DNA from: a virus
Lineage: Duplodnaviria; Caudoviricetes
Reading direction: 5' to 3' (one strand)
IMG/VR virus record: IMGVR_UViG_3300016478_000076
Coordinates: 1-53,056 of that record
DNA length: 53,056 bases
The notes under the pieces are model-generated. The model worked only from the letters and a program-made list of their open reading frames with translations. It made no database searches and was not told the origin of the DNA. Within the stretch, counting starts at the first letter, position 1, and each line of letters begins with the position of its first letter. Made by a program: the position numbers and the translations under genes. Shown piece after piece: positions 1,394 to 53,056 of the stretch.

Positions 1394-2875
1394 CTATCTC
1401 ATAGATTTACTTAGAAGATTTACAACCTTCTTATATCCACCATCGCTAGTCTCTCTTTCAAGATTAGTAAATGATAGATATTCATATAAGTCTTCTCCAG
1501 TATCATATATCCACTTAGTAACTTCATTTACTTCATCTACTATACAGAAGCAAAGCAAGTTAAGACTATCCATTATAGGAGTAATTTCTTTAGGATTTTC
1601 TAAGTCTATATTATACTCTTTCTTGATATAGTCTATAGTGGTTTGATTTACTGTTAATGTAGTTATAGCCATAGCATCATTACTAATAGCTAATCTACGT
1701 TTAATTCTTCCTTTTAAAGCTCTTCTTTCAAGAACTTTCCAAAGTTTAGAACTGCTACCTTTTCTACTTTGAGATAAAGCATCTACCTTAGCTCTATCTA
1801 TAGCAAATAAGAAATCTTTCATAAATGAAATTTCCTTTGTAGTAGCTTTGATAAACTTAAATGCAAAGTTTTTATCTACAGATTTAGATACAAGTCTATC
1901 TACTATATCCATTGTATCTAAAGCATGCATTTTACATTTTATTCCTAGAACTAGAGTTATTGGTATAGAATACTCTTCCTTAGGAATAATAATATTTACT
2001 GTCATTAGAGTTGGAGTTAACTCATTAGCTTTCTTTACATCAGTATCAAGAAGCATATTTCTAATAGTCTCGCTATTAGTCTTCATCATACCATAAGCAT
2101 CTTTAGCATTATTCATAGTATTAGCTCTAGTAGCTAAACTATTCTTTAATTCAGCATTAATACCTTTAATCTGCTTAAGTTGCTCATTATTTTGATGACC
2201 TGTTATTATTGCAGTAGAGCGTTCTATCTGACCTGCTTTTAAATCAATATAATCTCTAGTTTTATTACCAGCGGCAATTATTGCATCACTAGGATCTGGA
2301 ATTGATGGTTTTTTATTATCTCTATTACTCTTATGTCTTCTATTAGCTTTAGACTCAGTAACTACAGCACTTCCATATATACCAGATGGAATTATTGTAT
2401 AATCTATAAGAGCAGTTTCATTGATATTATCCTCTAGATAATACCCGTCATTCTTTAGATACTCTTCAGTTACTAATTTTCTTGCTTCCATATCAGACAT
2501 AGTACTTTCAAATACATACTTGTCCATTAAGGTCATCATTCCATCTACAGTTAAATCAGATCCTATATCTAAATTCTGATGGAATTTTCTTACATGTTCA
2601 CCAGCATCTTTACCAGTGCTGATAGTATTAGCTGTAAATAACATTTGCATCATAGAAGTAGTGTTTCTCTCTTGAGCTTTAGTTACCATAGAAGCATTTT
2701 CTATAGCTATAGATCTATCAACAAGTACAGGGAATACCATTGTATATGCTGATGCAGAAGTTGCTATATTTTTATTATGAGCTTTTCCTTTCATAAGACC
2801 AATAGAATCAGTGTCTTTGATCTCTGTAGTGAGGTCTATAATATCTCTTATTACAGTTTCATGTATAGCCTTCAT
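1394..2875 (-). CDS. Putative virion structural protein (493 aa)
   Basis: Long ORF, SD AAGGAGG, late promoter at 2910-2921, sites such as VFE-S and VVTE-S. Confidence 0.65.
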   Translation of the reverse strand: MKAIHETVIRDIIDLTTEIKDTDSIGLMKGKAHNKNIATSASAYTMVFPVLVDRSIAIENASMVTKAQERNTTSMMQMLFTANTISTGKDAGEHVRKFHQNLDIGSDLTVDGMMTLMDKYVFESTMSDMEARKLVTEEYLKNDGYYLEDNINETALIDYTIIPSGIYGSAVVTESKANRRHKSNRDNKKPSIPDPSDAIIAAGNKTRDYIDLKAGQIERSTAIITGHQNNEQLKQIKGINAELKNSLATRANTMNNAKDAYGMMKTNSETIRNMLLDTDVKKANELTPTLMTVNIIIPKEEYSIPITLVLGIKCKMHALDTMDIVDRLVSKSVDKNFAFKFIKATTKEISFMKDFLFAIDRAKVDALSQSRKGSSSKLWKVLERRALKGRIKRRLAISNDAMAITTLTVNQTTIDYIKKEYNIDLENPKEITPIMDSLNLLCFCIVDEVNEVTKWIYDTGEDLYEYLSFTNLERETSDGGYKKVVNLLSKSMR

Positions 2876-2909
2876 ATATTTTCCTCCTTCTCTAATTGTG
2901 TGCTAAGCT

Positions 2910-2921
2910 TATTTATATGTT
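2910..2921 (-). promoter_or_regulatory. Late-type promoter AACA-N6-TA
   Basis: AACATATAAATA. Confidence 0.7.
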
Positions 2922-2928
2922 GCTAAGA

Positions 2929-3228
2929 CAAAAAATAAAGAGCCGTGTGGTTAATTAGCGAAGAAAAATTATAGGGGTTGCAACTTCCCTATAATTATCA
3001 ACCTTTACCTGTTGATTAGGTATGAAAGTACTTGTTACCAGATTATCGATGTCGATAGTGTTTCCCATATGTATAAAATCCTCCTTGTGAGATAGGCTTT
3101 CGCCAATGTTGTATTTTGTCATATACGGTCAAGTGGCAAGGGAATTTTATTATATGTTTTCTGGCTTTCTATTAAGTACATTCCTTTCTCAAGTATGTTA
3201 GTTCGAATTAAGTTTGGCTCTTTATTCA
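2929..3228 (-). ncRNA. Candidate ~300-nt structured early transcript with a 5'-3' closing helix
   Basis: Early promoter at 3232-3242. 11-bp perfect inverted repeat 2934-2944/3216-3226 followed by a U tract. Internal hairpins at 2967-2996, 2997-3016 and GGC-GAAA-GCC at 3095-3104. Confidence 0.45.
2955..3068 (-). CDS. 37-aa micro-peptide MGNTIDIDNLVTSTFIPNQQVKVDNYREVATPIIFLR
   Basis: SD AAGGAGG 11 nt upstream of the ATG; below the ORF-track cutoff. Confidence 0.5.
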   Translation of the reverse strand: MGNTIDIDNLVTSTFIPNQQVKVDNYREVATPIIFLR

Positions 3229-3231
3229 TCA

Positions 3232-3242
3232 TTATAGTATAT
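3232..3242 (-). promoter_or_regulatory. Early-type promoter ATATA(C/T)TATAA-N3-TGAA
   Basis: ATATACTATAATGATGAATAA on the minus strand. Confidence 0.65.
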
Positions 3243-3265
3243 GATTGTATATTTTTTTAAGGGAG

Positions 3266-3277
3266 AACAGTTAATTA
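3266..3277 (+). promoter_or_regulatory. Late-type promoter AACA-N6-TA
   Basis: AACAGTTAATTA, 22 nt before the ATG at 3300. Confidence 0.7.
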
Positions 3278-3299
3278 AATGAATTGAGGTGATTATAGA

Positions 3300-4562
3300 A
3301 TGAAACTTAAAATGAAAGTGAAACCAATTGGTAGTAGACTACATGTAAGAAGGGATGCAACCTTAGCATCTCCTGTTGTAAACTATCTATTATCAGGGGA
3401 TATCGTAATAGTAACTCAAGAAAAGAATGGCTGGGTTTATCATGATAAGGGTGGTTGGACTGCTGCTAACTATCTTGAATTAATTGAAAATATGGAAGGT
3501 GGATTTACTACTATACCAAGCTCGGTTATAAATCAAACCCCTGTTACTGGTAATGCTCCATATAATGAAACAATGTCTGATTTAGATGCCGTTAGAGCAG
3601 AAACTAGAGCAGCTAAACAAACTCAAGCTTCTCCACTAAAGCAGACTACTTTAAGTTCTGATATAAAGGATAGTTTAAAAGCTCATGGTATATATGATAG
3701 AGCTGAACTAGATAAGTTTAAATATTTTAAAAGATTTAATGCATTTGATCCTTATAATAGGATAAGAACTGTTAAGGAATATCTATTCTTTACTAAGCCA
3801 GATCTTAATATTTATTCTGATACTTCTGGAACTACATTACAACCTCAATTAGCATCAGACCCTATATTTCTAGAAATTCATAATAAGAACCCTAAGATAC
3901 TTCATCAATTACAGAGAAGTGTAACTGCTAATAAGGGTGACTTTATTACCTTATTATCTTGGACAGTAAAGAATACTATGGATATGCCTAATATCCAATC
4001 TAAAGATATAGACACTAGTGCAAATCAATTCGGTACTAGAGTATACTATAGAAAACATGGTATAGAGAGTGATGAAAATCATGAATTCTCTCTAGAGTTT
4101 TCTGAGAATAAATCTTTAGATACTTATTCATTTTTTAAGGCTTGGAGTCATTATAATGATTTAAAAAGTATCGGTGTAGTTTCTCCTAAAGACCAATATA
4201 GAGATAAGATGGAACTTCATGACCAAATAGCTGTATATAAAATTGTAGTAGATGAAATATCAGATATTATATTTTATGCTAGAGCTATAGGAGTATATCC
4301 TAAAGGTGCTCCAAGAGATAGCTTATCTCAAATATCTGAAGATATGTCTCATAACGTATCTTTTAAAGCTTTTGATGTAGAGGATTCTAATCCTATAATA
4401 ATTCATGAATTTAATAAACGGGCAAAACCTGGAACTGCTGCACCAATGTTCGATGTTTCTAAAGGACGCCCTGGTACTGCACTTGTTACTGGAGTTTATA
4501 TTGTAAGAGAAGAATATAAGAATAAACCAGGTTTCAGATATCAATTGAAATGGAGGTTATAA
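3300..4562 (+). CDS. SH3b domain + tail tube/baseplate hub-like protein
   Basis: N-terminal SH3b (LHVRRDA...GDIVIV..EKNGW....GGWTAANYL); C-terminal tube-like motifs (FSLEFSE, FKAW, IGVYPKG). Confidence 0.65.
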   Translation: MKLKMKVKPIGSRLHVRRDATLASPVVNYLLSGDIVIVTQEKNGWVYHDKGGWTAANYLELIENMEGGFTTIPSSVINQTPVTGNAPYNETMSDLDAVRAETRAAKQTQASPLKQTTLSSDIKDSLKAHGIYDRAELDKFKYFKRFNAFDPYNRIRTVKEYLFFTKPDLNIYSDTSGTTLQPQLASDPIFLEIHNKNPKILHQLQRSVTANKGDFITLLSWTVKNTMDMPNIQSKDIDTSANQFGTRVYYRKHGIESDENHEFSLEFSENKSLDTYSFFKAWSHYNDLKSIGVVSPKDQYRDKMELHDQIAVYKIVVDEISDIIFYARAIGVYPKGAPRDSLSQISEDMSHNVSFKAFDVEDSNPIIIHEFNKRAKPGTAAPMFDVSKGRPGTALVTGVYIVREEYKNKPGFRYQLKWRL

Positions 4563-11256: not shown

Positions 11257-14200
11257 TTATTGTGGCTGAGCTATTATCTCATTCATGTTCATTATAAGTT
11301 TACCTAGACTTTCATTAGCTAAACTTCCTGATTTTCCTGCAGATGCATTTCTAATAGCATTAGCTATAGCTGCAGATTGGTCATTACTGTTCTTTAATGA
11401 CTTCATCTTTTCCTTAGGAATAGTAATGTTCAAGCCTTTGGATAACAACTCAACTACTTGAGATAGATTACCAGTATGCTCTAGCATTTTAGTGATTAAA
11501 GCTATTAATATTTGTAGAGATTGATTAACTGCTGGGTCATTTGCTACAGTAACATTATTAGTTCCTTGAGATGTAACTGTTGATGTATTATTTGTAGGAG
11601 TATTAGCAGTAGCATTATTTATAGAAGTAGTAGCTGTAGGTATTCTACCTTTTAGTTTCTGGAATATATCAGTATTCTCAAATTTATTAGATGCTGTAGC
11701 TAATCTAGATTTGATATTGGTTACTGAAGAATTAGACATATTACCATAATCTCCAAGTTCAGCTTTTGCTTGTACTTCTCTAGCAAATCTTTCATCAGGA
11801 GACATAACCTTAGTATTACCAATAAGACCATACTTCTTATAAACTTCTATCCTACGTTGTTCAGCAGCAGATACTGTAACTGTAGGAGTTGATTTATTAC
11901 CATTAGTAACTTGCTCTGCAAAGATTTGATCTGGAGTTTTAACTCCCAATCCAGCTTTAGGGTCACTTACAAATGTTGACTTAGGTTGGTTAGCATAATC
12001 ACCCATTTCAGTATTACCATTAACCATCATAGCAAATTTCTCATCTTCAGTAAGGACTCTCTTATCATATAGACCTTGTTTAGCATATGCTGCTATACGT
12101 TTAACAAAATCTACATCTGCAGCTTTTATTTTATCTACATTAGATGGTCCACTACCCATACCCATCATAGCTTGAGACTTAGAAATTGCACCAGAAGAAG
12201 TTCCAGTTGATTCAGATGGACGTATATGTCTCTTAGCGAGTATATACTTAGAGTCATTTGGATTAAATGTTTTTATAGTAGGTCCTTTAACTTTTCCACC
12301 TGCTCCACCACCATGCCCAATCATCTTTCCATTTCCATAGTACATTTCAACGTGTCCTACACCATAAGGTCTATTTTTACCATGAGATCTTTGGAAGAAT
12401 AGTAGGTCTCCAGGTCTAAGGTTACTTAGACTAGATTTACCACCTGCTACTTTACCTTTATCTACAGTAGTACCTTTACCTATTTGATCTAGAGTAGAAT
12501 GACCAACATTGATTCCAGCACCTTTTTCATAAGCCCATTTTACAGTAGAACTACAGTCAGCACTACCCTTTTCAGGATTTCTAGCTCCAGTCATACTATA
12601 AGCAAGTTTACCTTTAACACTTTCCATCTTAGCTAATACAGGTCTTACCGAACCATCAGCCATAGCAGATCCACCTAGGTCACTCTCTAGAGATGCTAAG
12701 AATTCTTTCTCATTACCTTTATCAAGTAATTGAAGATTATATTTTTCAATAGTATTAATTATCTTAGTAGCATATGCAGGGTCAGTAGCATATCCACCTT
12801 TCATTAATATATTAACAGCGGTTTTATAGTTAGAAGCACCAGCAAAACCATTATATCTCTTCTGTCCACTCATTACTGCTATATAATCTTTTTGAGAATC
12901 TTCCCATGTTGCATACTTTCTAAAGTTAGCATTTATAGTAGTACTTTGCCCATTATAAACTTCTCCAGTCTTCATATTTATAGAAGCACCTTTCCAGCTA
13001 CTTCCACATTTGATACCAAATAAGTTCTTTCCTTTCTGAGCTAGACCACTATTTCCCCAAGATGATTCATGTATAGCCTGAGCTATATGAACTGAAGGTA
13101 ATACTCTCTTACTTCTAAATCCTTCCATAGCAACTTTAATTAATCTCTTAATAAAGTCTTTCTTAGAAGTAGATAGACCTGAAGCTCCACTACCTGTAGC
13201 TCCACCTGTTCCACCGTCAGCACCTGGCATTAAATCACTATAATCTAATCCCATTAAACCTCTAATCATTATCTCTCCAGCTCTCATAATCTGTTCGATA
13301 GGACTTAGGTTTTGGCTTTCAGCTATTTGATCATCAGATATCATCTCTTCTCCAGTAGCTTCGTCTATCATAGTACCATCAGAATTAATACCTAGAGATT
13401 GATAAGCATTAGATGTAATAGCATAAGTAGAAGCTTTGATAGTATTAGCAAAGTTAAACTTATAATTACCTTTATTTCTTTCAGGGTCATGAATTATTAC
13501 TTTATCTTCACCATCTGTACCAACGGCTACAACATAGTGAGGTTTCTTACCAAATGGTGTACTAGCTCCACCTTTACCCATAAGTATAGTAGGAATACCT
13601 TGTCTAATCTTATCCATGATAGAACCACCAATAGAAGACTTAGTAGCTTTTCCATCAAGTTTCTGAGTAGAACTACTTACTCCATGCTCAGTAGCAAATG
13701 CAGGGAAGAATCCAGGTTTAGTACCACCATTCTTTTCTTTAAATCCTTTGTCTACAGCAAACTTAGCAGCTTCATTAGGATATACTTCAGTACCTTTAAA
13801 TGCACTTACAACCATAGATGCTGCTGTAGGTCCACATCCTGAATCACCGATAGTTTGTTTAACTGTATCATTCTTAGAGTTAAATCTATCATTAGCCCAA
13901 CGTCTATCCTTTTGACTGAAGAATGGTATTGCTGGAGGATCTATAGATTCCATTAAAGCATCTTTAGTTCTACCACCAGCTACAGCTCTAGCAGCCATAG
14001 TATTTTGTTGAGCTTCTTTATTTAGATTAACTTTACCAGAAGTTTCAAATGTATTTCTTTGAGCATTTCTACCTGTAGGTTTGATATCTTTTGCTCCAGT
14101 ATATCTAGCATTTTTAGCCTTAGCTTTTTCTTCTGCAGATTTGCCACCGAATATCTTAGATACCCAACCCATTCCATACTTAGGTCCAGATCCCATACCA

Positions 14201-17200
14201 TATTGTGGTTCAGAATTACCTTTACCCCAAGTAAATGGATTATACCATTTGAACTCACTCTTACTAGTCTTCTCTACATTATATTGCTTATTATATTTAT
14301 TTGCTTTCTTACTATAATCATCAAAACTTACAGCATTACTTCCAGCAGCTTCTTTATAATTAGCATAAGTAGATTTTAATGCTTGCTGTCCTTCTGATAT
14401 ATCATCTTCTATTTTTCCAGGCATTATCTTAACAACTGAAGATAGTATATATTTCTTTGGAACTAAACCAAACAAGAATCTTTGGTTTAATGCATTTACT
14501 AATCCAGATACTATTCTTACTGGTAGAGGAACATCTCCTTCTACTTGTAATATCTCATCAGCATTAGACATACCCCAAATAATATCACCTGCAGTTATAG
14601 CTACACCTACAGGTCCTAACCATCCTGCTAATTTCTTACCTGCAGAACCTAAAACATCTTTACCTACCTTTTCAGCTAATACTTTAGGTAGACCTGTCAT
14701 TCTTTCTGCAAATTCAGCACCGATGATTTTGACTATTCTAGGATTTTTAAATATACTAAAAGCTTTTTCGAATAATGAGAATCCTTTAGTAGCTAAATCA
14801 TCTACATGTCCAGCTAAAGGGGTTCCACCAATTGCATTTTTTACTTTACCACCATATCCAGTAATAGCTTTATTAGCAGTCCAAACAACAGGTTTCATTA
14901 GAGTTCTTCCTACCCCTCCAACTATGCCTTTACTATGAGCTAAGAAGTTAAAAGCAGTTCTATTTTCTTGAGCTTTAGAGCGTCCTAAAAATTCTGTTCC
15001 ACCTTCAGCTATAGAATCTCCTTCTAGAGAACCATCAGCATCTCCACCACCCATCATACTAACTAGTTTAGATAAATCATTGAATAATCCTGGTAGTAAT
15101 GGTAATGCTACTAGTAATGCAGGAGCCATCTTTAACATTGCTCCACCAAATTGAACCAAAGGTCCACCAAGGTTTTTGAGCATATCAAATATGCCACCCT
15201 CTTTTTCTTCTCCTTCTTTCTTCTCTTTAGGCTTATGACCAATTACTTCTAATAGTTTATCTTGGAAAGAATTATCTCTATTCTCTTCAGATTCTAATCT
15301 ATTTTGAACTTCACTATTTAGTGGTTTAAGAGTTCCTTTATAGTCTCTCTTAAACTTAAGCTCACCGTAAGGAGTCAACATAGAAGCAGTCTCAGGAGCT
15401 TTAGCTTCTAAATCATTAGGTATATTAGGAGTGACAGCATCTTTACCTTTATCTAATACCTTATCAGTAGCAGATTTAGCAGCTTCTTTAGCTCCATCTT
15501 CAGGATGAGATTCTCCTTTAATAGCATATAGAATTCTCTCTAATAAACCATGAGTTTTCTCTGCTATTTTTTCATTAGATACAGTAGTTTCACTTATAGC
15601 TTCTTCTACAGTTTTTGGTTCTTCTTTAGTATTATTTTGAGCTTTATTTGCTTCGGATAATTTTCTAGATTTATAACCTCTAGTAATAGCACCTCTATAT
15701 CCTCCAGCAGAATTCTCATCCATATACTTGAAAGTTTCTTCAATTTCTTTATCGGAATAACTTTTCTTGCCATCTTTCATATCTCTAAGAATCTGATTAT
15801 AACGTAATTGTTGTTCAAAATGTTCTAGTACTCTAAATGGACTTGTAACAAAATCGCCTAAACCTTTTAATAGGAAACTTCCTGCACCATCTATTATTTT
15901 TTTCATAGGTCCAAAAATCCATTTTTCCATACCTTGAGAAAATTTGTCACCGAATACAGCATTAAATACTTCTCCTACCTTTTCGGCTACTCCTTTAACA
16001 ATCATTTTTCCTAGATGTCCAACTTCTTTAGCAAGAGGTTTTATAGAATGAGCTACTGGTTTAAGCATGTTTTCTACTACAAAGAATTTAAGGTCTAAAG
16101 CTTTCTCTCTTATAAACCCTATCATACCGCCATGTAGTTTACCGTCCTTACCTTCTTTACCAATAAGCATTTCAGTAAACTTCTGACTCTTAGTAGCCAT
16201 ACCTATAGCAGCACCGACAGTAATACCGCCTACTAGACCAAAAGGTCCACTTAATGCTAAAGCTCCACCAATACCACCAGCAATTCCTCTAGGTAATAAT
16301 CCTTCTATGAACTGTTTAGCTTTAGGTCCTAATAATCCATCCTCTTCTCCAAATAAGAAGTTTTGAACTCCTTCACTCTTCTTAGCAAAGTTATATACTA
16401 CTCCACCCATAAGACCACCAACAACACCAAAAGGAGTAAATGGTAATAACCCTAGAGCAGCTCCAGTAATAGCAGACTTCTTAGTACCAGGCATATACTT
16501 ATTAAAAGTATCTATTATATCTTTAGTAACTAGACCGCCTTTTCTATTACCTTCTAAATCTTTATCACCAAATAAGAATTTCTGTGCAGATTCACTCTTC
16601 TTAAGGAATGCAACTCCAGCACCAATACCAGCCCAAGCTAAAGGTCCTCCCACTAGTCCAGCTAATGCACCAACACCTCCACCAATTATAGCACCAGAAC
16701 CTAAATGTGGAAGATAGTCTTTGAAATTCTTCTTAGCATCTTTAACAACTTCTTCTAAATCTTCATTAACTTTCTTATCTACTTCTTCTTCTTTAGTAGT
16801 TCCGAATAATGCTCTCTTGATAGAACCCATCATAGAATGCATTTCTTCTCCTACCTGTGTAGCTAAAGAAGGAGTATCTTTCTTTCCTTTAGAGATATTT
16901 TTACCACTAATTTCAGCTATATCATTTAGTGCCTGTTGTGTATCTGAATAGTCTTTAATGATACTTAATATCTTCTCTTTATCTTCACCATCTTTTTCAG
17001 TCTTTGGTACAGACTTTAATACTTCAGCTTCTATAAGAGCTAAAAGCTTTTCATTATATTCAGTTTTAGACAATCTCTTTTTATCCTTAATATTTGGAGC
17101 CATAGAATCTGCAATAGCAGAAATCTTCTCAAACATTTGAGGAATTAAAGCATTTGCATCTGCAGTAACGACAGCTTCACCTTTGTGTAGACTTGCAAGG

Positions 17201-20200
17201 TAATTATCTCTAGGGATAAAACTAGCACCATCAGCATGTTCAGGAAGGTCTTTAAAATACTGCATAAGATTTTCTAGAGGAGTATTTCCTTCAGTATTAA
17301 ATACACTTTTAGGTCTAACAGTATCTTCTACATCAGTTTTATCAATACCTTCTCTATTTATAGTATTTAATCCTAAGCCAGTAGTCATTAAATTATCAAC
17401 AGGATTAATTAAAGCAGGGCTAATAGAACTTAAATCTATAGGCATATCAGCACCAGTAGCAACACTAGCAGATTTCATACTTAACTTACTTGCTATAGGA
17501 GCTAATAATGTAGCCGAAGCTACATGTATATTTTTGCTTAATAGATTTATGAATTTCACTAAAGCTTTATTAACCTGAGCTTCTTCTTTCATACCATTAA
17601 AGCAAGTAAATAAAGCAGTTTTTAAAGCAGCTTCATCTTGATTATTAGCATCTATACCTTTAAGCTCATTAAGAATCTCTGTAATAGCAGTAAGTTTCTT
17701 AGCTGTAGATATATTCATACCTTTATCAATACCATGAAGATGTTTATATACTACTCCAGATAATACTGTAAACTTATCTTTATCTATACCTTTAGTATCA
17801 GTCAATTCTTGATTAGCATCTAATTTACTAGATAGAAGAGTCTTCTGTATCTTAGCAAATACATCTTGATTACCAAAAGTATAATTCATAGCTCCAGTAG
17901 TTTTCTCTTTTACTACTGCCATTAATGTATCATTCTTAGCATATCCATTTCGAACAATCTCTTGAAGTACAGCGACAATCGCTTTATGAGGGTCCCTGGG
18001 ATCAACGTCATCTATAATAGATTTGATATTCTTTGCTAATGATGTTTCTTTAGAGCTTCTTGGATGAAACTTAACTAAAGCTTGTAGCATTTTATCTAAT
18101 ACTATAGACTGGTCTATTTCATTTCTTTTAGTTGGGTCATACATATATTGCTCTGCTAATTTAGTAATCTTAGCTATTTGTGTTGGAGCACCAATAATAT
18201 CATTCTTTATATCAAATAGATCACTCTTAGTTTGATGGAAGATATCACTAAATACAGAAGTCGATACATAATCACCATTCTCATCTTTATCTCCAAAGAA
18301 AAATTTACCAACACCTTTTTGCATATCTTTTACTGTCATATCGCTTCCAGTAAATCTTAATAAGGTATCTCCAAACTCTTCTAACTTAGGAAATAAATTC
18401 TCTTGCATTGGTTTAAATATAGTTTCTTCTAACCATTCATTTAAGTTAGAGAAAGTCTGTTTCATCTCAACAACAAGCATATCCATAAAACCTCTAACAT
18501 GCTCACCTTTATACATCTTAACTTGCTCTTTACCATACATGATTTCATATAATCTAAGGTCTACATTATCCATCATATTAGCCATGAAATCCCATGGTTT
18601 ATTTGAGATATCAGTCATAGCCTTAGTTACATTATCAAACTTCTCCATTAAGCTAGTTCCAACCATAGTCTCTAGGAACTTTCCACCCCAACTACGTTTT
18701 TCTTTCTTTTCAGATTCAGCTTTTGCTTTTTCTATTCTAGATTCAGTATCCATCTTAGTATATAAAACATAACCGAAATCTTCTGGAGACATTTGATCTA
18801 ATTCTTCAATAATATTATATTTCTCTTTCTTTCTATTCTTATTATATTCAAATGAACGAGCATCTGATTCTTTCTTAGAATCTTCAGGGTCTTGTTGATA
18901 AATATAGTTGTTTATATTAGTATCTCTATCTAATATAGGATTATTAGTAGAATCAATTAATCTGCCTCTACTATCAACAATACCTTGTCTTCTAGGTCTA
19001 TAATTTCCAGCTCCTCCGACATTATAGACTTTAATACCTTCTAATAGAGTAGCAGTAATCTTATTAAGATAAAAGAATATATTATTCCCATAACTATCTT
19101 TAGTTTCTAAAAAAGAATTATCAGTACTTCTATTAATAGCTCCTTTTTTAACTCTTCCTTTTTCATCTACTATCTCTCCACCTTTAAAGTTATTCTCTAA
19201 AAAGGCAAATAAGCTAGTACCTTTAGCATTCTCTGCTTCAAAGTCTTTATTAAGTCTAGTACGAGCTTCCATCATACCTCTATCGAAGTTCATTTGAGAC
19301 TCTCGTTTAGCACCTTTAAACATTCTAACTATCTTATCATAGTTATCAGAGTTTATATCTAAATCATAATCAGAGCTATCTCTTCTAGGGTCAAATCTTC
19401 TACCACTAGTTAAGAAATATTGGAAGAACTTTTGCATATCTTCTTCCATTCTCTTTTGTTGCTCTATACTAGAGAATGTAAACTTCTCTAACATATCAGT
19501 CATTTCTCTTCTGACATCTCCAGCACCAGATTCTGCAGCACTTCTAATCTTATCCTGTTTCATCTTCTTTACATCTGTAATATCCATGAATTTACCAGAC
19601 TCATAATCATAGACTAATTCATTCTTTCCAGATTGTACAGCAAGTATTTTAGATAATAATCCAGGAATAACTTCAGTTAGAGCTTTCTTAGCTACACCAT
19701 CCCATGCTACAGCACCTTTATTATATTTAGAAGTATCTATAGAAGTACTTAATCTATTATTTACTCCAAATATATTACCGATACGTGATAAGAAGTTATC
19801 TTCTTGCTTTAAGTCATTAAAGAAAGATAAAGCAGAACTAAAGAATCCTGATATAGATTTATTTAACTTATCAGAACTTTTCTTAAAGTTCTCTCCTATC
19901 ATTTTAGTAACTAGCATTCTAGGTAAGAATTCTAACGGAGCAGCAGTTAATGCCATTAGTGTATTACCACCTTCAAACATATCACCCATAGCTCCAAGTA
20001 CGCCAGACTCATTCTTCATATTCTTTGCAACATTCTTAAAATATTCAGAGAAGCTTATAGCTCCACTAGCAGTTACTATGTCATCATAGTCTATCCTTTT
20101 AGAAGAAGATGTATCTTCGCCTTGAGAACTCTTATATTGATTTCTCTGCATTTCTACACTTTCTTTTAATAATGCATTAATCTCTGATAAAGTCTTTGTA

Positions 20201-20859
20201 GTAGTTTCATAATAGGTTTTACTATTATCTATAAAGGTAGACATTCCTTTATTATTAAATTCTACAAGTTTACTTATATTTTGATTACTAGCATCTAGAT
20301 AGCCATTGATATCTTTAAACGCTCTCATATTAATAAGCATATTATGCTCATATAATTGTCTTTGATTACCAACGATATATTCACTAGTTCTAGCCACAGT
20401 AGAAGAAATCATTTCTGCATTAGCTTTACTACTAGCATCTATATTATCTATTAAGTAATCTTCATCCATACTCATATCATCATCGTCAAAAGACATATCA
20501 TCATCGCTGTCAAAATCAACGCTAATATCCATATCTTCATTCCAACTATCTAATCCCATAGCCTTTTGTTCTATCTTAGCTTTTCTTTCAGGGTTATATA
20601 GTTTACCAGTAGTGATGTCTTCAATTATACTCTTATGCATTTGGTCTGCAGCTTCATATAATTTACTATTCTTGATATAATCATGTGTCTTTCTAGCTAT
20701 TAGTTTATGGTCGCTAACAGCATATGCAACAGCTTTAAATAACTCTTGGTTTGTCTCTACAGTATCTGCAATAACTGGATTGTAGCTTTTAACTACATCA
20801 GCCGTGGCATATACAACGGATTTACCAATATTCTTGATGTATTCTTGAACATTCGTCAT
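11257..20859 (-). CDS. Tape measure / tail-associated lysin (3200 aa) with C39-like peptidase, GH73 glucosaminidase and NlpC/P60 domains
   Basis: HADG...LHKGEAVV tape-measure motif; Gly-rich hydrophobic repeats; SGCGPTAASM...HYVV...DP; AQAIHESSWG...NLFGIK...YATDPAY; DCSS...PGDLLF...GHVEMY. Confidence 0.85.
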   Translation of the reverse strand: MTNVQEYIKNIGKSVVYATADVVKSYNPVIADTVETNQELFKAVAYAVSDHKLIARKTHDYIKNSKLYEAADQMHKSIIEDITTGKLYNPERKAKIEQKAMGLDSWNEDMDISVDFDSDDDMSFDDDDMSMDEDYLIDNIDASSKANAEMISSTVARTSEYIVGNQRQLYEHNMLINMRAFKDINGYLDASNQNISKLVEFNNKGMSTFIDNSKTYYETTTKTLSEINALLKESVEMQRNQYKSSQGEDTSSSKRIDYDDIVTASGAISFSEYFKNVAKNMKNESGVLGAMGDMFEGGNTLMALTAAPLEFLPRMLVTKMIGENFKKSSDKLNKSISGFFSSALSFFNDLKQEDNFLSRIGNIFGVNNRLSTSIDTSKYNKGAVAWDGVAKKALTEVIPGLLSKILAVQSGKNELVYDYESGKFMDITDVKKMKQDKIRSAAESGAGDVRREMTDMLEKFTFSSIEQQKRMEEDMQKFFQYFLTSGRRFDPRRDSSDYDLDINSDNYDKIVRMFKGAKRESQMNFDRGMMEARTRLNKDFEAENAKGTSLFAFLENNFKGGEIVDEKGRVKKGAINRSTDNSFLETKDSYGNNIFFYLNKITATLLEGIKVYNVGGAGNYRPRRQGIVDSRGRLIDSTNNPILDRDTNINNYIYQQDPEDSKKESDARSFEYNKNRKKEKYNIIEELDQMSPEDFGYVLYTKMDTESRIEKAKAESEKKEKRSWGGKFLETMVGTSLMEKFDNVTKAMTDISNKPWDFMANMMDNVDLRLYEIMYGKEQVKMYKGEHVRGFMDMLVVEMKQTFSNLNEWLEETIFKPMQENLFPKLEEFGDTLLRFTGSDMTVKDMQKGVGKFFFGDKDENGDYVSTSVFSDIFHQTKSDLFDIKNDIIGAPTQIAKITKLAEQYMYDPTKRNEIDQSIVLDKMLQALVKFHPRSSKETSLAKNIKSIIDDVDPRDPHKAIVAVLQEIVRNGYAKNDTLMAVVKEKTTGAMNYTFGNQDVFAKIQKTLLSSKLDANQELTDTKGIDKDKFTVLSGVVYKHLHGIDKGMNISTAKKLTAITEILNELKGIDANNQDEAALKTALFTCFNGMKEEAQVNKALVKFINLLSKNIHVASATLLAPIASKLSMKSASVATGADMPIDLSSISPALINPVDNLMTTGLGLNTINREGIDKTDVEDTVRPKSVFNTEGNTPLENLMQYFKDLPEHADGASFIPRDNYLASLHKGEAVVTADANALIPQMFEKISAIADSMAPNIKDKKRLSKTEYNEKLLALIEAEVLKSVPKTEKDGEDKEKILSIIKDYSDTQQALNDIAEISGKNISKGKKDTPSLATQVGEEMHSMMGSIKRALFGTTKEEEVDKKVNEDLEEVVKDAKKNFKDYLPHLGSGAIIGGGVGALAGLVGGPLAWAGIGAGVAFLKKSESAQKFLFGDKDLEGNRKGGLVTKDIIDTFNKYMPGTKKSAITGAALGLLPFTPFGVVGGLMGGVVYNFAKKSEGVQNFLFGEEDGLLGPKAKQFIEGLLPRGIAGGIGGALALSGPFGLVGGITVGAAIGMATKSQKFTEMLIGKEGKDGKLHGGMIGFIREKALDLKFFVVENMLKPVAHSIKPLAKEVGHLGKMIVKGVAEKVGEVFNAVFGDKFSQGMEKWIFGPMKKIIDGAGSFLLKGLGDFVTSPFRVLEHFEQQLRYNQILRDMKDGKKSYSDKEIEETFKYMDENSAGGYRGAITRGYKSRKLSEANKAQNNTKEEPKTVEEAISETTVSNEKIAEKTHGLLERILYAIKGESHPEDGAKEAAKSATDKVLDKGKDAVTPNIPNDLEAKAPETASMLTPYGELKFKRDYKGTLKPLNSEVQNRLESEENRDNSFQDKLLEVIGHKPKEKKEGEEKEGGIFDMLKNLGGPLVQFGGAMLKMAPALLVALPLLPGLFNDLSKLVSMMGGGDADGSLEGDSIAEGGTEFLGRSKAQENRTAFNFLAHSKGIVGGVGRTLMKPVVWTANKAITGYGGKVKNAIGGTPLAGHVDDLATKGFSLFEKAFSIFKNPRIVKIIGAEFAERMTGLPKVLAEKVGKDVLGSAGKKLAGWLGPVGVAITAGDIIWGMSNADEILQVEGDVPLPVRIVSGLVNALNQRFLFGLVPKKYILSSVVKIMPGKIEDDISEGQQALKSTYANYKEAAGSNAVSFDDYSKKANKYNKQYNVEKTSKSEFKWYNPFTWGKGNSEPQYGMGSGPKYGMGWVSKIFGGKSAEEKAKAKNARYTGAKDIKPTGRNAQRNTFETSGKVNLNKEAQQNTMAARAVAGGRTKDALMESIDPPAIPFFSQKDRRWANDRFNSKNDTVKQTIGDSGCGPTAASMVVSAFKGTEVYPNEAAKFAVDKGFKEKNGGTKPGFFPAFATEHGVSSSTQKLDGKATKSSIGGSIMDKIRQGIPTILMGKGGASTPFGKKPHYVVAVGTDGEDKVIIHDPERNKGNYKFNFANTIKASTYAITSNAYQSLGINSDGTMIDEATGEEMISDDQIAESQNLSPIEQIMRAGEIMIRGLMGLDYSDLMPGADGGTGGATGSGASGLSTSKKDFIKRLIKVAMEGFRSKRVLPSVHIAQAIHESSWGNSGLAQKGKNLFGIKCGSSWKGASINMKTGEVYNGQSTTINANFRKYATWEDSQKDYIAVMSGQKRYNGFAGASNYKTAVNILMKGGYATDPAYATKIINTIEKYNLQLLDKGNEKEFLASLESDLGGSAMADGSVRPVLAKMESVKGKLAYSMTGARNPEKGSADCSSTVKWAYEKGAGINVGHSTLDQIGKGTTVDKGKVAGGKSSLSNLRPGDLLFFQRSHGKNRPYGVGHVEMYYGNGKMIGHGGGAGGKVKGPTIKTFNPNDSKYILAKRHIRPSESTGTSSGAISKSQAMMGMGSGPSNVDKIKAADVDFVKRIAAYAKQGLYDKRVLTEDEKFAMMVNGNTEMGDYANQPKSTFVSDPKAGLGVKTPDQIFAEQVTNGNKSTPTVTVSAAEQRRIEVYKKYGLIGNTKVMSPDERFAREVQAKAELGDYGNMSNSSVTNIKSRLATASNKFENTDIFQKLKGRIPTATTSINNATANTPTNNTSTVTSQGTNNVTVANDPAVNQSLQILIALITKMLEHTGNLSQVVELLSKGLNITIPKEKMKSLKNSNDQSAAIANAIRNASAGKSGSLANESLGKLIMNMNEIIAQPQ

Positions 20860-51919: not shown

Positions 51920-52600
51920 ATGAATAATAGAATAAAATTGGCTGCTGAATTATATGTAGAGAGAAATAAAAATATGGTATTAAAATCTAAAGTATCAGAT
52001 AATATATTTTATCATTTAATAGATAAAAATGCTAAATTTGATAAATACGGATTAGTATCACCTCAATATATATATGATAATAAAATAAAGAATTTATACC
52101 CGCTATTAGATTTATCACTTAGTAAATATGCTGATAGAATAGTTGATACTTGGAATATTGAAAAATATAAAGGTAGAGATCCTAAAAGTCTTAGCAGAGA
52201 AGAGATAATGGATGGTATAAAAATATTTAGAAAAGATGAAAATTCTTTAAAATATATTTATCTTTTTAAATACCCACCATATTTTGGATTAGGTAAAAAT
52301 ATGGATAATATACTTAAAGACAAAAAACTTATTAAAATAAATATAAATAATTCATCGGTATGGTATATAGATTATGGATACGAAAATTCTTATATTGGTA
52401 ATAAAAAATTAGATTTTCAATATTATAATGATATATCAATAAAAGATTATTATAAAAATTATAAAGATAATAATAGTCCTATATTTGCTTCTTTAAATCA
52501 TATTTCGATAATATGGGGTGATGGACATATACCACCAGAATATTTAGAAGAAGTTCCAATTCCAAACAAATCTAATATCGGTCATTTACTAAATAAATGA
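51920..52600 (+). CDS. Hypothetical protein, possible ADP-ribosyltransferase-like fold
   Basis: FYHL.......GLVS, YIYLF and the terminal HIPPEYL resemble KptA/DUF952-type ART motifs. Confidence 0.45.
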   Translation: MNNRIKLAAELYVERNKNMVLKSKVSDNIFYHLIDKNAKFDKYGLVSPQYIYDNKIKNLYPLLDLSLSKYADRIVDTWNIEKYKGRDPKSLSREEIMDGIKIFRKDENSLKYIYLFKYPPYFGLGKNMDNILKDKKLIKININNSSVWYIDYGYENSYIGNKKLDFQYYNDISIKDYYKNYKDNNSPIFASLNHISIIWGDGHIPPEYLEEVPIPNKSNIGHLLNK

Positions 52601-52630
52601 GATACCCATTATGGGTATCTCATCTTTTTT
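52597..52630 (+). terminator. Intrinsic terminator
   Basis: ATGAGATACCCA-TTA-TGGGTATCTCAT plus T tract. Confidence 0.85.
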
Positions 52631-52652
52631 GTTAAAGTCTATAATATCAATC

Positions 52653-52670
52653 ATATACTATAACTGTGAA
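52653..52670 (+). promoter_or_regulatory. Early-type promoter
   Basis: ATATACTATAACTGTGAATAAGAACT, nearly identical to the 27742 site. Confidence 0.7.
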
Positions 52671-52721
52671 TAAGAACTTAATCTTATTCTATTATTTTAT
52701 AATCCTAAGGAGGAATTTATT

Positions 52722-53056
52722 ATGTTAAAAATATCAAAGAAAAACATACTTGAGCTTATGGAAAAAACAAATCTAAAAAATATCAGTGATCCAATCAAAA
52801 GGATTCATGCAACCAAAGAACTTATTAAAAATGAAACCGTGAATCTAGATAATATTAATATAATTGGAAAGAATATCGATGTTCCGTATATTTATTTATC
52901 AACTTTAGAATGCTGTGAATTAACATTTATAACACACTCTGGGTTAAGTAATATCTATATAGTCTCAGATATACTTGGAGTACAAACAGATTTTGAATTT
53001 GAAGATGCTTTAAATGTACAACGTGAACTAGAACTTTTATTAGAATTTGGATATTA
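52722..53056 (+). CDS. Hypothetical early protein, partial (runs off the right edge)
   Basis: SD AAGGAGG; MLKISKKNILELMEKTNLKN... open to the window end. Confidence 0.7.
   Translation, partial: MLKISKKNILELMEKTNLKNISDPIKRIHATKELIKNETVNLDNINIIGKNIDVPYIYLSTLECCELTFITHSGLSNIYIVSDILGVQTDFEFEDALNVQRELELLLEFGY

Follow-up and report, generated by a model that had tools for sequence, protein, structure and literature searches.

The subject of this analysis is a small early transcription unit in a 53-kb virus record of the IMG/VR database (IMGVR_UViG_3300016478_000076; CheckV completeness 21%), which was analyzed at its full length of 53,056 nt and is referred to below as the window. The unit lies on the minus strand, within the 424-nt gap that separates the divergent genes 1394-2875 (-) and 3300-4562 (+). 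Its predicted RNA is closed end to end: the first nucleotides pair with a site about 270 nt downstream, which runs directly into a U-rich tract, and a 37-aa open reading frame (ORF) led by a Shine-Dalgarno (SD) motif is enclosed in between. The decisive support for this predicted closing helix is covariation in relatives. Because the relatives keep the pairing while the sequences of the arms change, the unit is a selected RNA design; the feature is real, conserved, and selected. In our view, the helix probably represents an intrinsic terminator that is split into two distant halves and, at the same time, a clamp protecting both ends of a small, translationally masked early mRNA, the ORF of which is exchanged between strains. 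We infer both the termination and the RNA-stabilizing role of the helix from the sequence.

Organization of the early unit and significance of its fold

In phage AR9, a cultured relative described below, early promoters follow the consensus AAATATATATTAT-(6N)-G+1 and late promoters the consensus AACA-(6N)-TA/G, as reported in PMC5312081. The early promoter of the window, AATCATATACTAT, also obeys the AR9 rule with respect to the 6N spacing (3233-3228) and the start G. An earlier note on this stretch had described a leftward early-type promoter between two divergent late promoters, a transcript start complementary to a site about 270 nt later that continues into a U tract, and, inside the unit, a GGC-GAAA-GCC hairpin, a strong SD, and a micro-ORF with a hairpin in its 3' half. 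All of these elements were found again at the places described (Table 1). The arms constitute a perfect 11-nt inverted repeat (2934-2944/3216-3226) with 271 nt between them, and the TTTATTTTTT tract directly follows and overlaps the 3' arm, just as a U-rich tract of about 7-9 nt immediately adjoins the helix in an intrinsic terminator.

In the minimum free energy (MFE) structure of the 298-nt unit, the closing helix begins at +1 and extends from pair 1-295 to pair 12-284; it consists of one G-U pair at +1 (G3227), followed by 11 perfect pairs. The somewhat longer RNA 2925-3230 (-) folds with -72.8 kcal/mol (z = -5.46), a value that was reached by none of 100 shuffles, and the end-to-end helix is again part of the MFE structure. 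Perfect inverted repeats of at least 11 nt at any place were found in 24 of 2000 mononucleotide shuffles of the 298-nt unit, and repeats of this length joining the first 14 to the last 25 nt in 0 of 2000. The pairing of the RNA start with its own end is confirmed to be far beyond chance.

Table 1. Features of the early unit and of its immediate surroundings (positions of the window)
Feature	Position	Strand	Basis
Late promoter AACA-N6-TA (non-virion RNA polymerase type) of the 420-aa virion gene 3300-4562	3266..3277	+	Motif scan; consensus of PMC5312081
Early promoter core AATCATATACTAT, virion RNA polymerase type	3234..3246	-	10 of 13 AR9 consensus positions matched
Predicted transcript start G3227 and 5' arm GAATAAAGAGCC	3216..3227	-	AR9 rule; MFE fold
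Anti-SD AAAATTCCCTTG, predicted partner of the SD region	3137..3148	-	Pair probabilities
GGC-GAAA-GCC tetraloop hairpin in the leader	3095..3104	-	Present in MFE fold
Shine-Dalgarno motif AGGAGG	3080..3085	-	Sequence
37-aa ORF MGNTIDIDNLVTSTFIPNQQVKVDNYREVATPIIFLR with stop codon	2955..3068	-	ORF list; open in natural variants
Perfect 10-bp local hairpin in the 3' half of the ORF, followed by TTTTTCTT	2967..2976 / 2987..2996	-	Repeat search
3' arm GGCTCTTTATT of the closing helix	2934..2944	-	Repeat search; MFE fold
TTTATTTTTT tract, predicted 3' end; tail common to the ordinary terminators of the phage	2930..2939	-	Sequence
Late promoter AACA-N6-TA of the 493-aa virion gene 1394-2875	2910..2921	-	Motif scan

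Conservation and covariation of the closing helix

Of 8000 scored candidates, 1971 were homologues of the 493-aa protein at E <= 0.001. Scanning viral contigs with a single protein did not return any relative, but alignment-based scans did and yielded 16 viral and 46 metagenomic loci. The synteny set was composed of 35 distinct upstream regions of at least 690 nt each. In 34 of these 35 regions, the structural gene is preceded by a T{2-4}AT{5+} tract at a distance of about 70 nt and, farther away at about 450 nt, by an early promoter (located separately in L003); both are missing in L005. The early promoters of the relatives, TATATTAT, have the same spacing as that of the window, and a late motif is located between the T tract and the structural gene in 34 of 34 units.

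Folding of each unit from the start given by the AR9 rule to the T tract revealed two classes. In 30 of the 34 units, 12-26 pairs close the RNA, the first paired base is at +1 to +6, and the local hairpin before the tract is weak (-0.5 to -9.9 kcal/mol); the unit length in the relatives of this class is 298-379 nt. In the other four units (L007, L008, L009, and L023), the number of closing pairs is 0-7, and the local hairpin is strong (-10.7 to -15.2 kcal/mol). Before the same tail, a unit thus has either closure or a local hairpin, which speaks for the helix as a substitute for the terminator stem.

The sequences of the arms differ by lineage: GAGCC/GGCTC in the window, GCATATAGAT/ATCTATATGC in the L013 group, GACTTATAG/CTATAAGTC in L010, and CCTATGGATAT/ATATCCATAGG in L014. 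All 5' arms were combined with all 3' arms in a duplex test with one representative for each of nine lineages, from which the conserved T tract was excluded (a first pass had used 25 arm pairs). The cognate duplex was the best one in 9/9 rows and in 9/9 columns, with a mean energy of -15.1 kcal/mol for cognate versus -5.9 kcal/mol (standard deviation 2.3) for non-cognate combinations, and the observed cognate sum was reached by 0 of 20000 permutations. For 18 sequences of the L013/L034 group, the largest related family, RNAalifold recovered a closing helix of 17 pairs, two of which are doubly compensatory, while five others show G-U/A-U changes on a single side. A helix over the SD and the start codon was also recovered in this set. 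A global MAFFT alignment of 14 units misplaced the 5' end of the window and was excluded from the pair counts. Compensatory changes, the hallmark of long-range interactions between 5' and 3' untranslated regions (UTRs) of the hbs type, are therefore present, and the conservation of the helix that the earlier note had made its touchstone is borne out.

The U-rich tract and the ordinary terminators

The window contains six ordinary terminators (29179+, 31955+, 36137+, 40931+, 46251+, and 27225-), each with a local hairpin of -8.4 to -18.6 kcal/mol that is followed by a TTT(T)ATTTTTT tail. Among the intergenic tracts of this kind in the window, only the one at 2939-2930 lacks a local hairpin; the 45 nt preceding it fold with only -0.5 kcal/mol, so that the compact hairpin of an intrinsic terminator is absent. 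In three of the six ordinary terminators, an AAATAAA flank that resembles the 5' arm of the early unit is found beside the stem. The tail of these terminators is unusually fixed, and in the three cases with the complementary flank its single A is matched as well.

Two near-complete related genomes of 236 kb and 244 kb contain 25 and 8 copies, respectively, of the strict early promoter WWTTRTATATTAT-6N-G, compared with 0-1 per strand in the reversed control, and 30 early-promoter units were fetched from them. Only in the syntenic unit of each genome does the first T tract lack a local hairpin while the 5' and 3' ends pair strongly (-15.6 and -24.3 kcal/mol); the remaining units have local hairpins, or have no such tract within 1.5 kb. 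Because only the syntenic unit shows the split pairing, the arrangement is specific for the syntenic slot and not a general property of early RNAs. A general burial of the 5' ends of early RNAs was also considered and was rejected: local helices starting at +1 to +3 occur at 7 of the 30 starts versus 128 of 900 shuffles, which is a weak signal. Five of these seven starts share the stem GAATAAA(A)G/CTTTATT(C), that is, the sequence of the closing helix of the window. An RNase III processing site was discarded as well, by reasoning only, since the 12-bp helix of the window is short for this enzyme.

Local hairpins at early starts were also seen elsewhere. In the related genome G001, five early transcripts (L069, L071, L075, L081, and L091) open with one and the same repeated leader element, GAATAAAAGTTAGTAGT..CTTTATTC, a 5'-terminal hairpin from +1. 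The window itself has a second copy of the early promoter in the region 52596-52700 (+), namely AATCATATACTATAAC at 52649-52664 (+), with one mismatch and just after an ordinary terminator with hairpin and T tract. The RNA predicted from this promoter has an 8-bp local hairpin from +1 (GAATAAGA...TCTTATTC) ahead of the SD for an ORF at 52722.

Predicted masking of the SD motif

The SD of the window has a predicted unpaired probability of 0.17, with partners at unit positions 85-89. Pyrimidine-rich upstream anti-SD sequences analogous to that of the window were found in 12 of 12 closure families examined, and the SD unpaired probability was 0.09-0.37 in all 12, compared with 0.17-0.54 in three local-hairpin units. 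According to these predictions, SD masking is conserved, but not extreme. An alternative pairing, UUGCCA/UGGCGA, which the earlier note had pointed out, is present in the sequence, and the respective part of the leader is invariant in the near relatives seen.

The 3' ends of the ORFs were compared between the window (2955-2975) and the relatives L010, L013, L022, L030, L003, L006, and L020. By our own reading of 10 families, 8 have the stop codon 8-15 nt ahead of the 3' arm. The last codons of the small ORFs mostly specify Ile, Phe, or Leu and stem from a U run before the stop codon, for example GAATTTTTAT.

The small ORF and its variation between strains

An SD-led ORF of 37-87 aa was found by script in 30 of the 34 units. 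The four units of the L034 type have an ORF with a weaker SD, which was seen by eye in L034. The ORF, the second element whose absence from related genomes would have spoken against the earlier note, is thus also found at this site in relatives. In the L013/L034 group, the ORF encodes a conserved, soluble-looking protein of 82-87 aa, for which the median ratio of nonsynonymous to synonymous substitution rates (dN/dS) is 0.25 (78 pairs), indicating purifying selection. The predicted fold of the 86-aa family is helix-strand-strand-helix-helix, with a mean predicted local distance difference test score (pLDDT) of 65.1; Foldseek returned 0 matches at E <= 0.001 in the PDB, and the ESM Atlas contained no usable match. 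The 37-aa peptide of the window has no match in Pfam or PHROGs, and none of the ORFs of ten relatives had a PHROG match better than E = 0.079. The window peptide has KVDNYREV-like residues in common with the 82-87 aa family (BLASTP E = 0.005 over 11 residues) and an end of the PII-FL type in common with L022 and L030, which is suggestive, but not proof, of homology. The region of L014 differs in that the gap comprises 1062 nt (2400-3461) and contains three tandem paralogues of the small ORF (71-82 aa); a separate early promoter precedes the first two, and only the last one lies within the closing helix.

Natural variants were obtained by aligning contigs of four runs to positions 2400-3800; the runs were chosen among 16 rows containing at least half of the sampled words. 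A divergent allele of wastewater strains, represented by X15, X17, and one X2 contig, has 22 substitutions and a 3-nt insertion, all within 2960-3063, and one base at 2964 is also missing in X17 and the X2 contig. The region 3064-3523 has one change only (3089) in the divergent allele, and the arms have none. Despite the substitutions and indels, the frame of the ORF is open in every natural form. The analysis supports a masked SD and a real 37-aa ORF with a structured 3' half. In the divergent allele, 13 of the 37 residues differ from the window, with a dN/dS of 0.56 and a dS of 0.35, compared with a divergence of roughly 1-2% in the flanks of the ORF. Because synonymous sites have diverged strongly as well, in contrast to the flanks with their roughly 1-2%, we infer that the ORF allele was replaced by recombination within the conserved flanks, that is, leader and terminator. 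By our own reading of the contig tables, the changes at 2993 and 2970 of the divergent allele turn a U-A pair of the local hairpin into C-G, and a change at 2945 in another allele gives the closing helix one more A-U pair.

Two public contigs, P0122 and P0123, have the same alleles, but a leader indel fuses the small ORF to the frame from ATG 3232, resulting in called proteins of 92-94 aa. This ATG is upstream of the predicted RNA start. The fusion is probably a gene-calling artifact, because the window has a stop codon there.

Source phage and cultured relatives

The genes that flank the early unit match PHROG families of virion structural proteins. With the 493-aa protein (1394-2875, minus strand), tblastn matched 13 records, none of which covered more than 80% of the query, including the virion protein of the Bacillus phages AR9, PBS1, and relatives with about 30% identity. 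Because the flanking genes match virion proteins of AR9 and PBS1, the window is, as judged from its genes, a fragment of a distant AR9-like (AR9/PBS1-like) jumbo phage. A blastn search with 2500-3700 against 50,697 phage records gave no match at the DNA level. Another part of the window, 11257-20859 (-), is a single ORF of 3200 aa.

In AR9, the syntenic region is composed of the virion gene g213 (minus strand), a 423-nt gap without a coding sequence (CDS), and the virion gene g214 (plus strand), which is the homologue of the 493-aa gene of the window. The gap contains an annotated early promoter (181705-181717) and an ORF of 15 aa led by an SD, together with a local hairpin, a T tract, and a late AACA motif; the unit has no annotated CDS in two AR9 records. 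The z-score of its RNA is -5.07; the ORF is surrounded by a 13-bp helix, and the U tract pairs with the 5' end. The AR9 unit differs from that of the window by the local hairpin near the tract, by an enclosing helix that starts at +22 instead of +1, and by its 15-aa ORF. The main text of the AR9 paper does not name g214 or P214. It reports that 33 of 34 predicted early promoters were detected, with the one before g057 as the exception, and that 41 of the 43 virion proteins, all except g084 and g215, are late (PMC5312081). A short early RNA therefore seems to end before g214 in AR9. Phage BpSp has a homologous 14-aa ORF, and the Listeria phage LPJP1 has a 12-aa ORF with a long local terminator. 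The SD-led micro-ORFs of AR9 (L065, 2776-2823), BpSp (L097), and LPJP1 (L099), 12-15 aa in length, are unannotated, resemble one another in their hydrophobic-leaning sequences, and lie in syntenic gaps free of CDSs. In Fusobacterium phage JD-Fnp1, the homologous gene is present in a co-linear block and the unit is absent.

Proposed function and alternative explanations

In the mechanism that we consider probable, the injected virion RNA polymerase (RNAP) would start at G3227, as predicted from the AR9 rule; sequence and covariation show that the first 12 nt of the RNA pair with the 11-12 nt adjoining and overlapping the TTTATTTTTT tract about 270 nt downstream. The end-to-end helix would serve as the stem of an intrinsic terminator, with the whole mRNA as its loop, and this split terminator would halt early transcription ahead of the late promoter of the 493-aa gene. 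With both ends paired, the RNA would resist 5'-end-dependent as well as 3'-exonucleolytic decay. The upstream anti-SD would mask the strong SD, so that the small ORF would be translated at a damped or conditional level, and the ORF would encode a fast-changing small early protein, the alleles of which are swapped by recombination in the flanks formed by leader and terminator.

Several observations weigh against this mechanism. A loop of 270 nt is unfavorable for hairpin-driven termination as known for bacterial RNAP. The start is predicted by analogy to AR9, and the promoter of the window matches only 10 of 13 consensus positions. The motifs that make up 7 of the 11 pairs of the window (AATAAAG/CTTTATT) are also found at other starts and terminators in these phages, so that the window, taken by itself, carries less weight as evidence than it appears to; in addition, its helix is short, and the variable part (-10.6 kcal/mol) was equaled or surpassed by 8 of 300 shuffles. 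The local hairpin in the ORF together with TTTTTCTT might itself halt part of the transcription. Three relatives have a second T tract adjoining the late promoter, and the tract might also serve that promoter. The SD of the unit ranks third lowest among 28 genes with a good SD, at the low tail but not unique, and the 37-aa allele has modest support as a coding sequence (dN/dS 0.56; E = 0.005 over 11 residues). Lastly, the RNA-library contigs X15 and X17 extend past the unit on both sides into the flanking late genes and may be DNA; they show neither a discrete RNA nor RNA ends. One X17 contig joins 3207-3270 (+) to 3211-2767 (-) as an inverted fold-back with its turning point near 3209-3211, immediately interior to the 5' arm, possibly as the result of cDNA snap-back or misassembly. 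It contains promoter DNA upstream of the predicted start and thus maps no RNA end.

The same facts can be arranged differently. In a variant that we regard as possible, but doubtful, a bipartite terminator of the virion RNAP would form depending on fold and translation: the default product would be a nuclease-resistant, masked panhandle mRNA, and ribosomes at the stop codon, 8-15 nt from the 3' arm, would open the helix, so that translation of the fast-changing early protein would be coupled to how long the RNA lives or to passage of the polymerase into the virion operon. A translation-gated attenuator, which would make the unit a leader for the 493-aa gene, appears unlikely. In such a device, a ribosome ending the small ORF would block the helix and permit early read-through, and masking of the SD would restore termination. 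The distance of 8-15 nt between stop codon and 3' arm in 8 of 10 families and the masked SD in 12 of 12 closure families would suit it, and the AR9 paper views long 5' UTRs (26-491 nt) as possible translational controls (PMC5312081). Yet the downstream late promoter, found in 34 of 34 units, makes an early promoter dispensable for the gene, and the late timing of 41 of 43 AR9 virion proteins points to little early read-through into g214. Moreover, an ORF that ranges from 37 to 87 aa and varies in sequence is unlike typical leader peptides. It is also rather unlikely that the helix has no part in termination, either because it only stabilizes the RNA ends and termination is brought about by the U-rich tract, the local ORF hairpin, or a factor, or because the inverted repeat marks, at the DNA level, where a mobile cassette recombines. 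There are precedents for both: a 14-nt 5'/3' pairing guards the hbs mRNA against cleavage (PMC5737220), and the swapping of the ORF allele between conserved flanks is reminiscent of the PeSL cassettes of phage T4 (PMC2839356). But closure and a local hairpin exclude each other ahead of the common tail, which speaks for a helix that takes over from the terminator stem, the positions of the arms exactly at +1 and at the tract reveal an RNA-level register, and the single unit per genome is unlike the dispersed PeSLs.

The remaining two explanations concern the product. That a structured early non-coding RNA of about 300 nt is the product and the ORF is incidental seems very unlikely to us. It would account for the better conservation of leader and arms than of the ORF in near relatives (1 versus 22 changes) and for the strong z-scores of the fold in the window (-5.46) and in AR9 (-5.07). 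It would leave unexplained why 30 of 34 units, by script, combine an open frame with a strong SD, why the L034 type, by eye, has one as well, why indels keep the frame, and why the family of 82-87 aa is under purifying selection. Furthermore, no Rfam family was matched: a search up to E = 10 gave three matches at chance level, with 12.8-19.7 bits versus gathering scores of 50-86.7. A pure decoy RNA, as proposed in the earlier note, may exist, but is not needed. The parallel to type I toxin mRNAs drawn in that note, extended to a stored mRNA that is inert when closed and activated by processing to yield a toxic peptide, is the least probable of all. The combination of a 5'-3' interaction with sequestration of the SD is indeed the architecture of hok and aapA3 (PMC6733600), and the micro-ORFs of AR9, BpSp, and LPJP1 (12-15 aa) are hydrophobic-leaning. 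However, the window peptide is not hydrophobic (grand average of hydropathy -0.01, best 15-aa window 0.47, net charge -1), relatives encode charged proteins of 44-87 aa, and the partner of the SD is upstream and not at the 3' end. Nor did a scan for phage motifs reveal an early or late promoter on the plus strand of 2930-3227 that could drive an antisense RNA; sigma-70-like matches in the region are at the level of expectation (8 versus 7.5), and host-type promoters may exist there. In summary, the interpretation of the earlier note is supported as far as the self-contained, 5'-3'-closed early RNA is concerned, and is not supported with respect to the toxin.

Significance and comparison with known systems

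If the proposed mechanism is correct, the unit would be a natural, covariation-supported case of a terminator stem that is split by about 270-350 nt and makes use of the transcript +1. Should the helix terminate transcription, the accepted limits on the loop size of intrinsic terminators would fail here, and a single helix would combine a terminator with a two-ended stabilizer. To our knowledge, little is known about termination by the multisubunit virion RNAPs of jumbo phages, or about the survival of early mRNA while the RNA of the cell is cleared. The unit also marks a conserved slot in which strains exchange small early proteins, and it is in slots of this kind that anti-host or anti-defense factors usually lie. 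As AR9, which has a syntenic version of the unit, grows on Bacillus subtilis 168, the idea is open to bench testing. A limited full-text search of the literature did not yield, among the matches listed, a description of such a split terminator, which is no proof of absence.

A close similarity exists to intrinsic terminators, including the hairpin and TTTATTTTTT sites of the phage itself, in which a helix likewise abuts a U-rich tract. The arms of the window, AAATAAAG.../...CTTTATTTTTT, resemble the two halves of these ordinary terminators; in the window, however, 271 nt separate the halves, and the upstream one coincides with the very 5' end of the predicted transcript. The hbs mRNA of B. subtilis (Braun, Durand, and Condon, 2017; PMC5737220), likewise a Firmicute-type mRNA, pairs about 14 nt of its 5' UTR just upstream of the terminator, which affects the access of RNases. 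However, hbs still has an ordinary terminator hairpin, and the partner on its 5' side lies internally, whereas in the window the pairing uses +1 and replaces the hairpin.

The hok/Sok and aapA/IsoA systems share an end-to-end interaction of the mRNA, SD sequestration, and a small ORF, and in hok and aapA3 it is the end-to-end interaction itself that sequesters the SD of the toxin gene, under control by an antisense RNA (PMC6733600). In the window, a 5'-3' interaction with SD sequestration is also found, but the mask is an upstream anti-SD, the helix is fused to the U tract, and neither a hydrophobic toxin nor, among phage promoter motifs, an antisense signal was found. The PeSLs of T4 (Arbiol et al., 2010; PMC2839356) likewise have conserved regulatory flanks between which small, variable early ORFs are exchanged by recombination, and the replacement of the ORF between conserved flanks is seen here, too. 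PeSLs have sigma-70 promoters, local stem-loops, and many dispersed copies, whereas the type represented by the window has a phage-RNAP promoter, a split stem, and one syntenic unit per genome, without dispersed copies among the 30 early units of the two related genomes. The architecture of the unit would work like a terminator fused to a 5'/3' long-range interaction.

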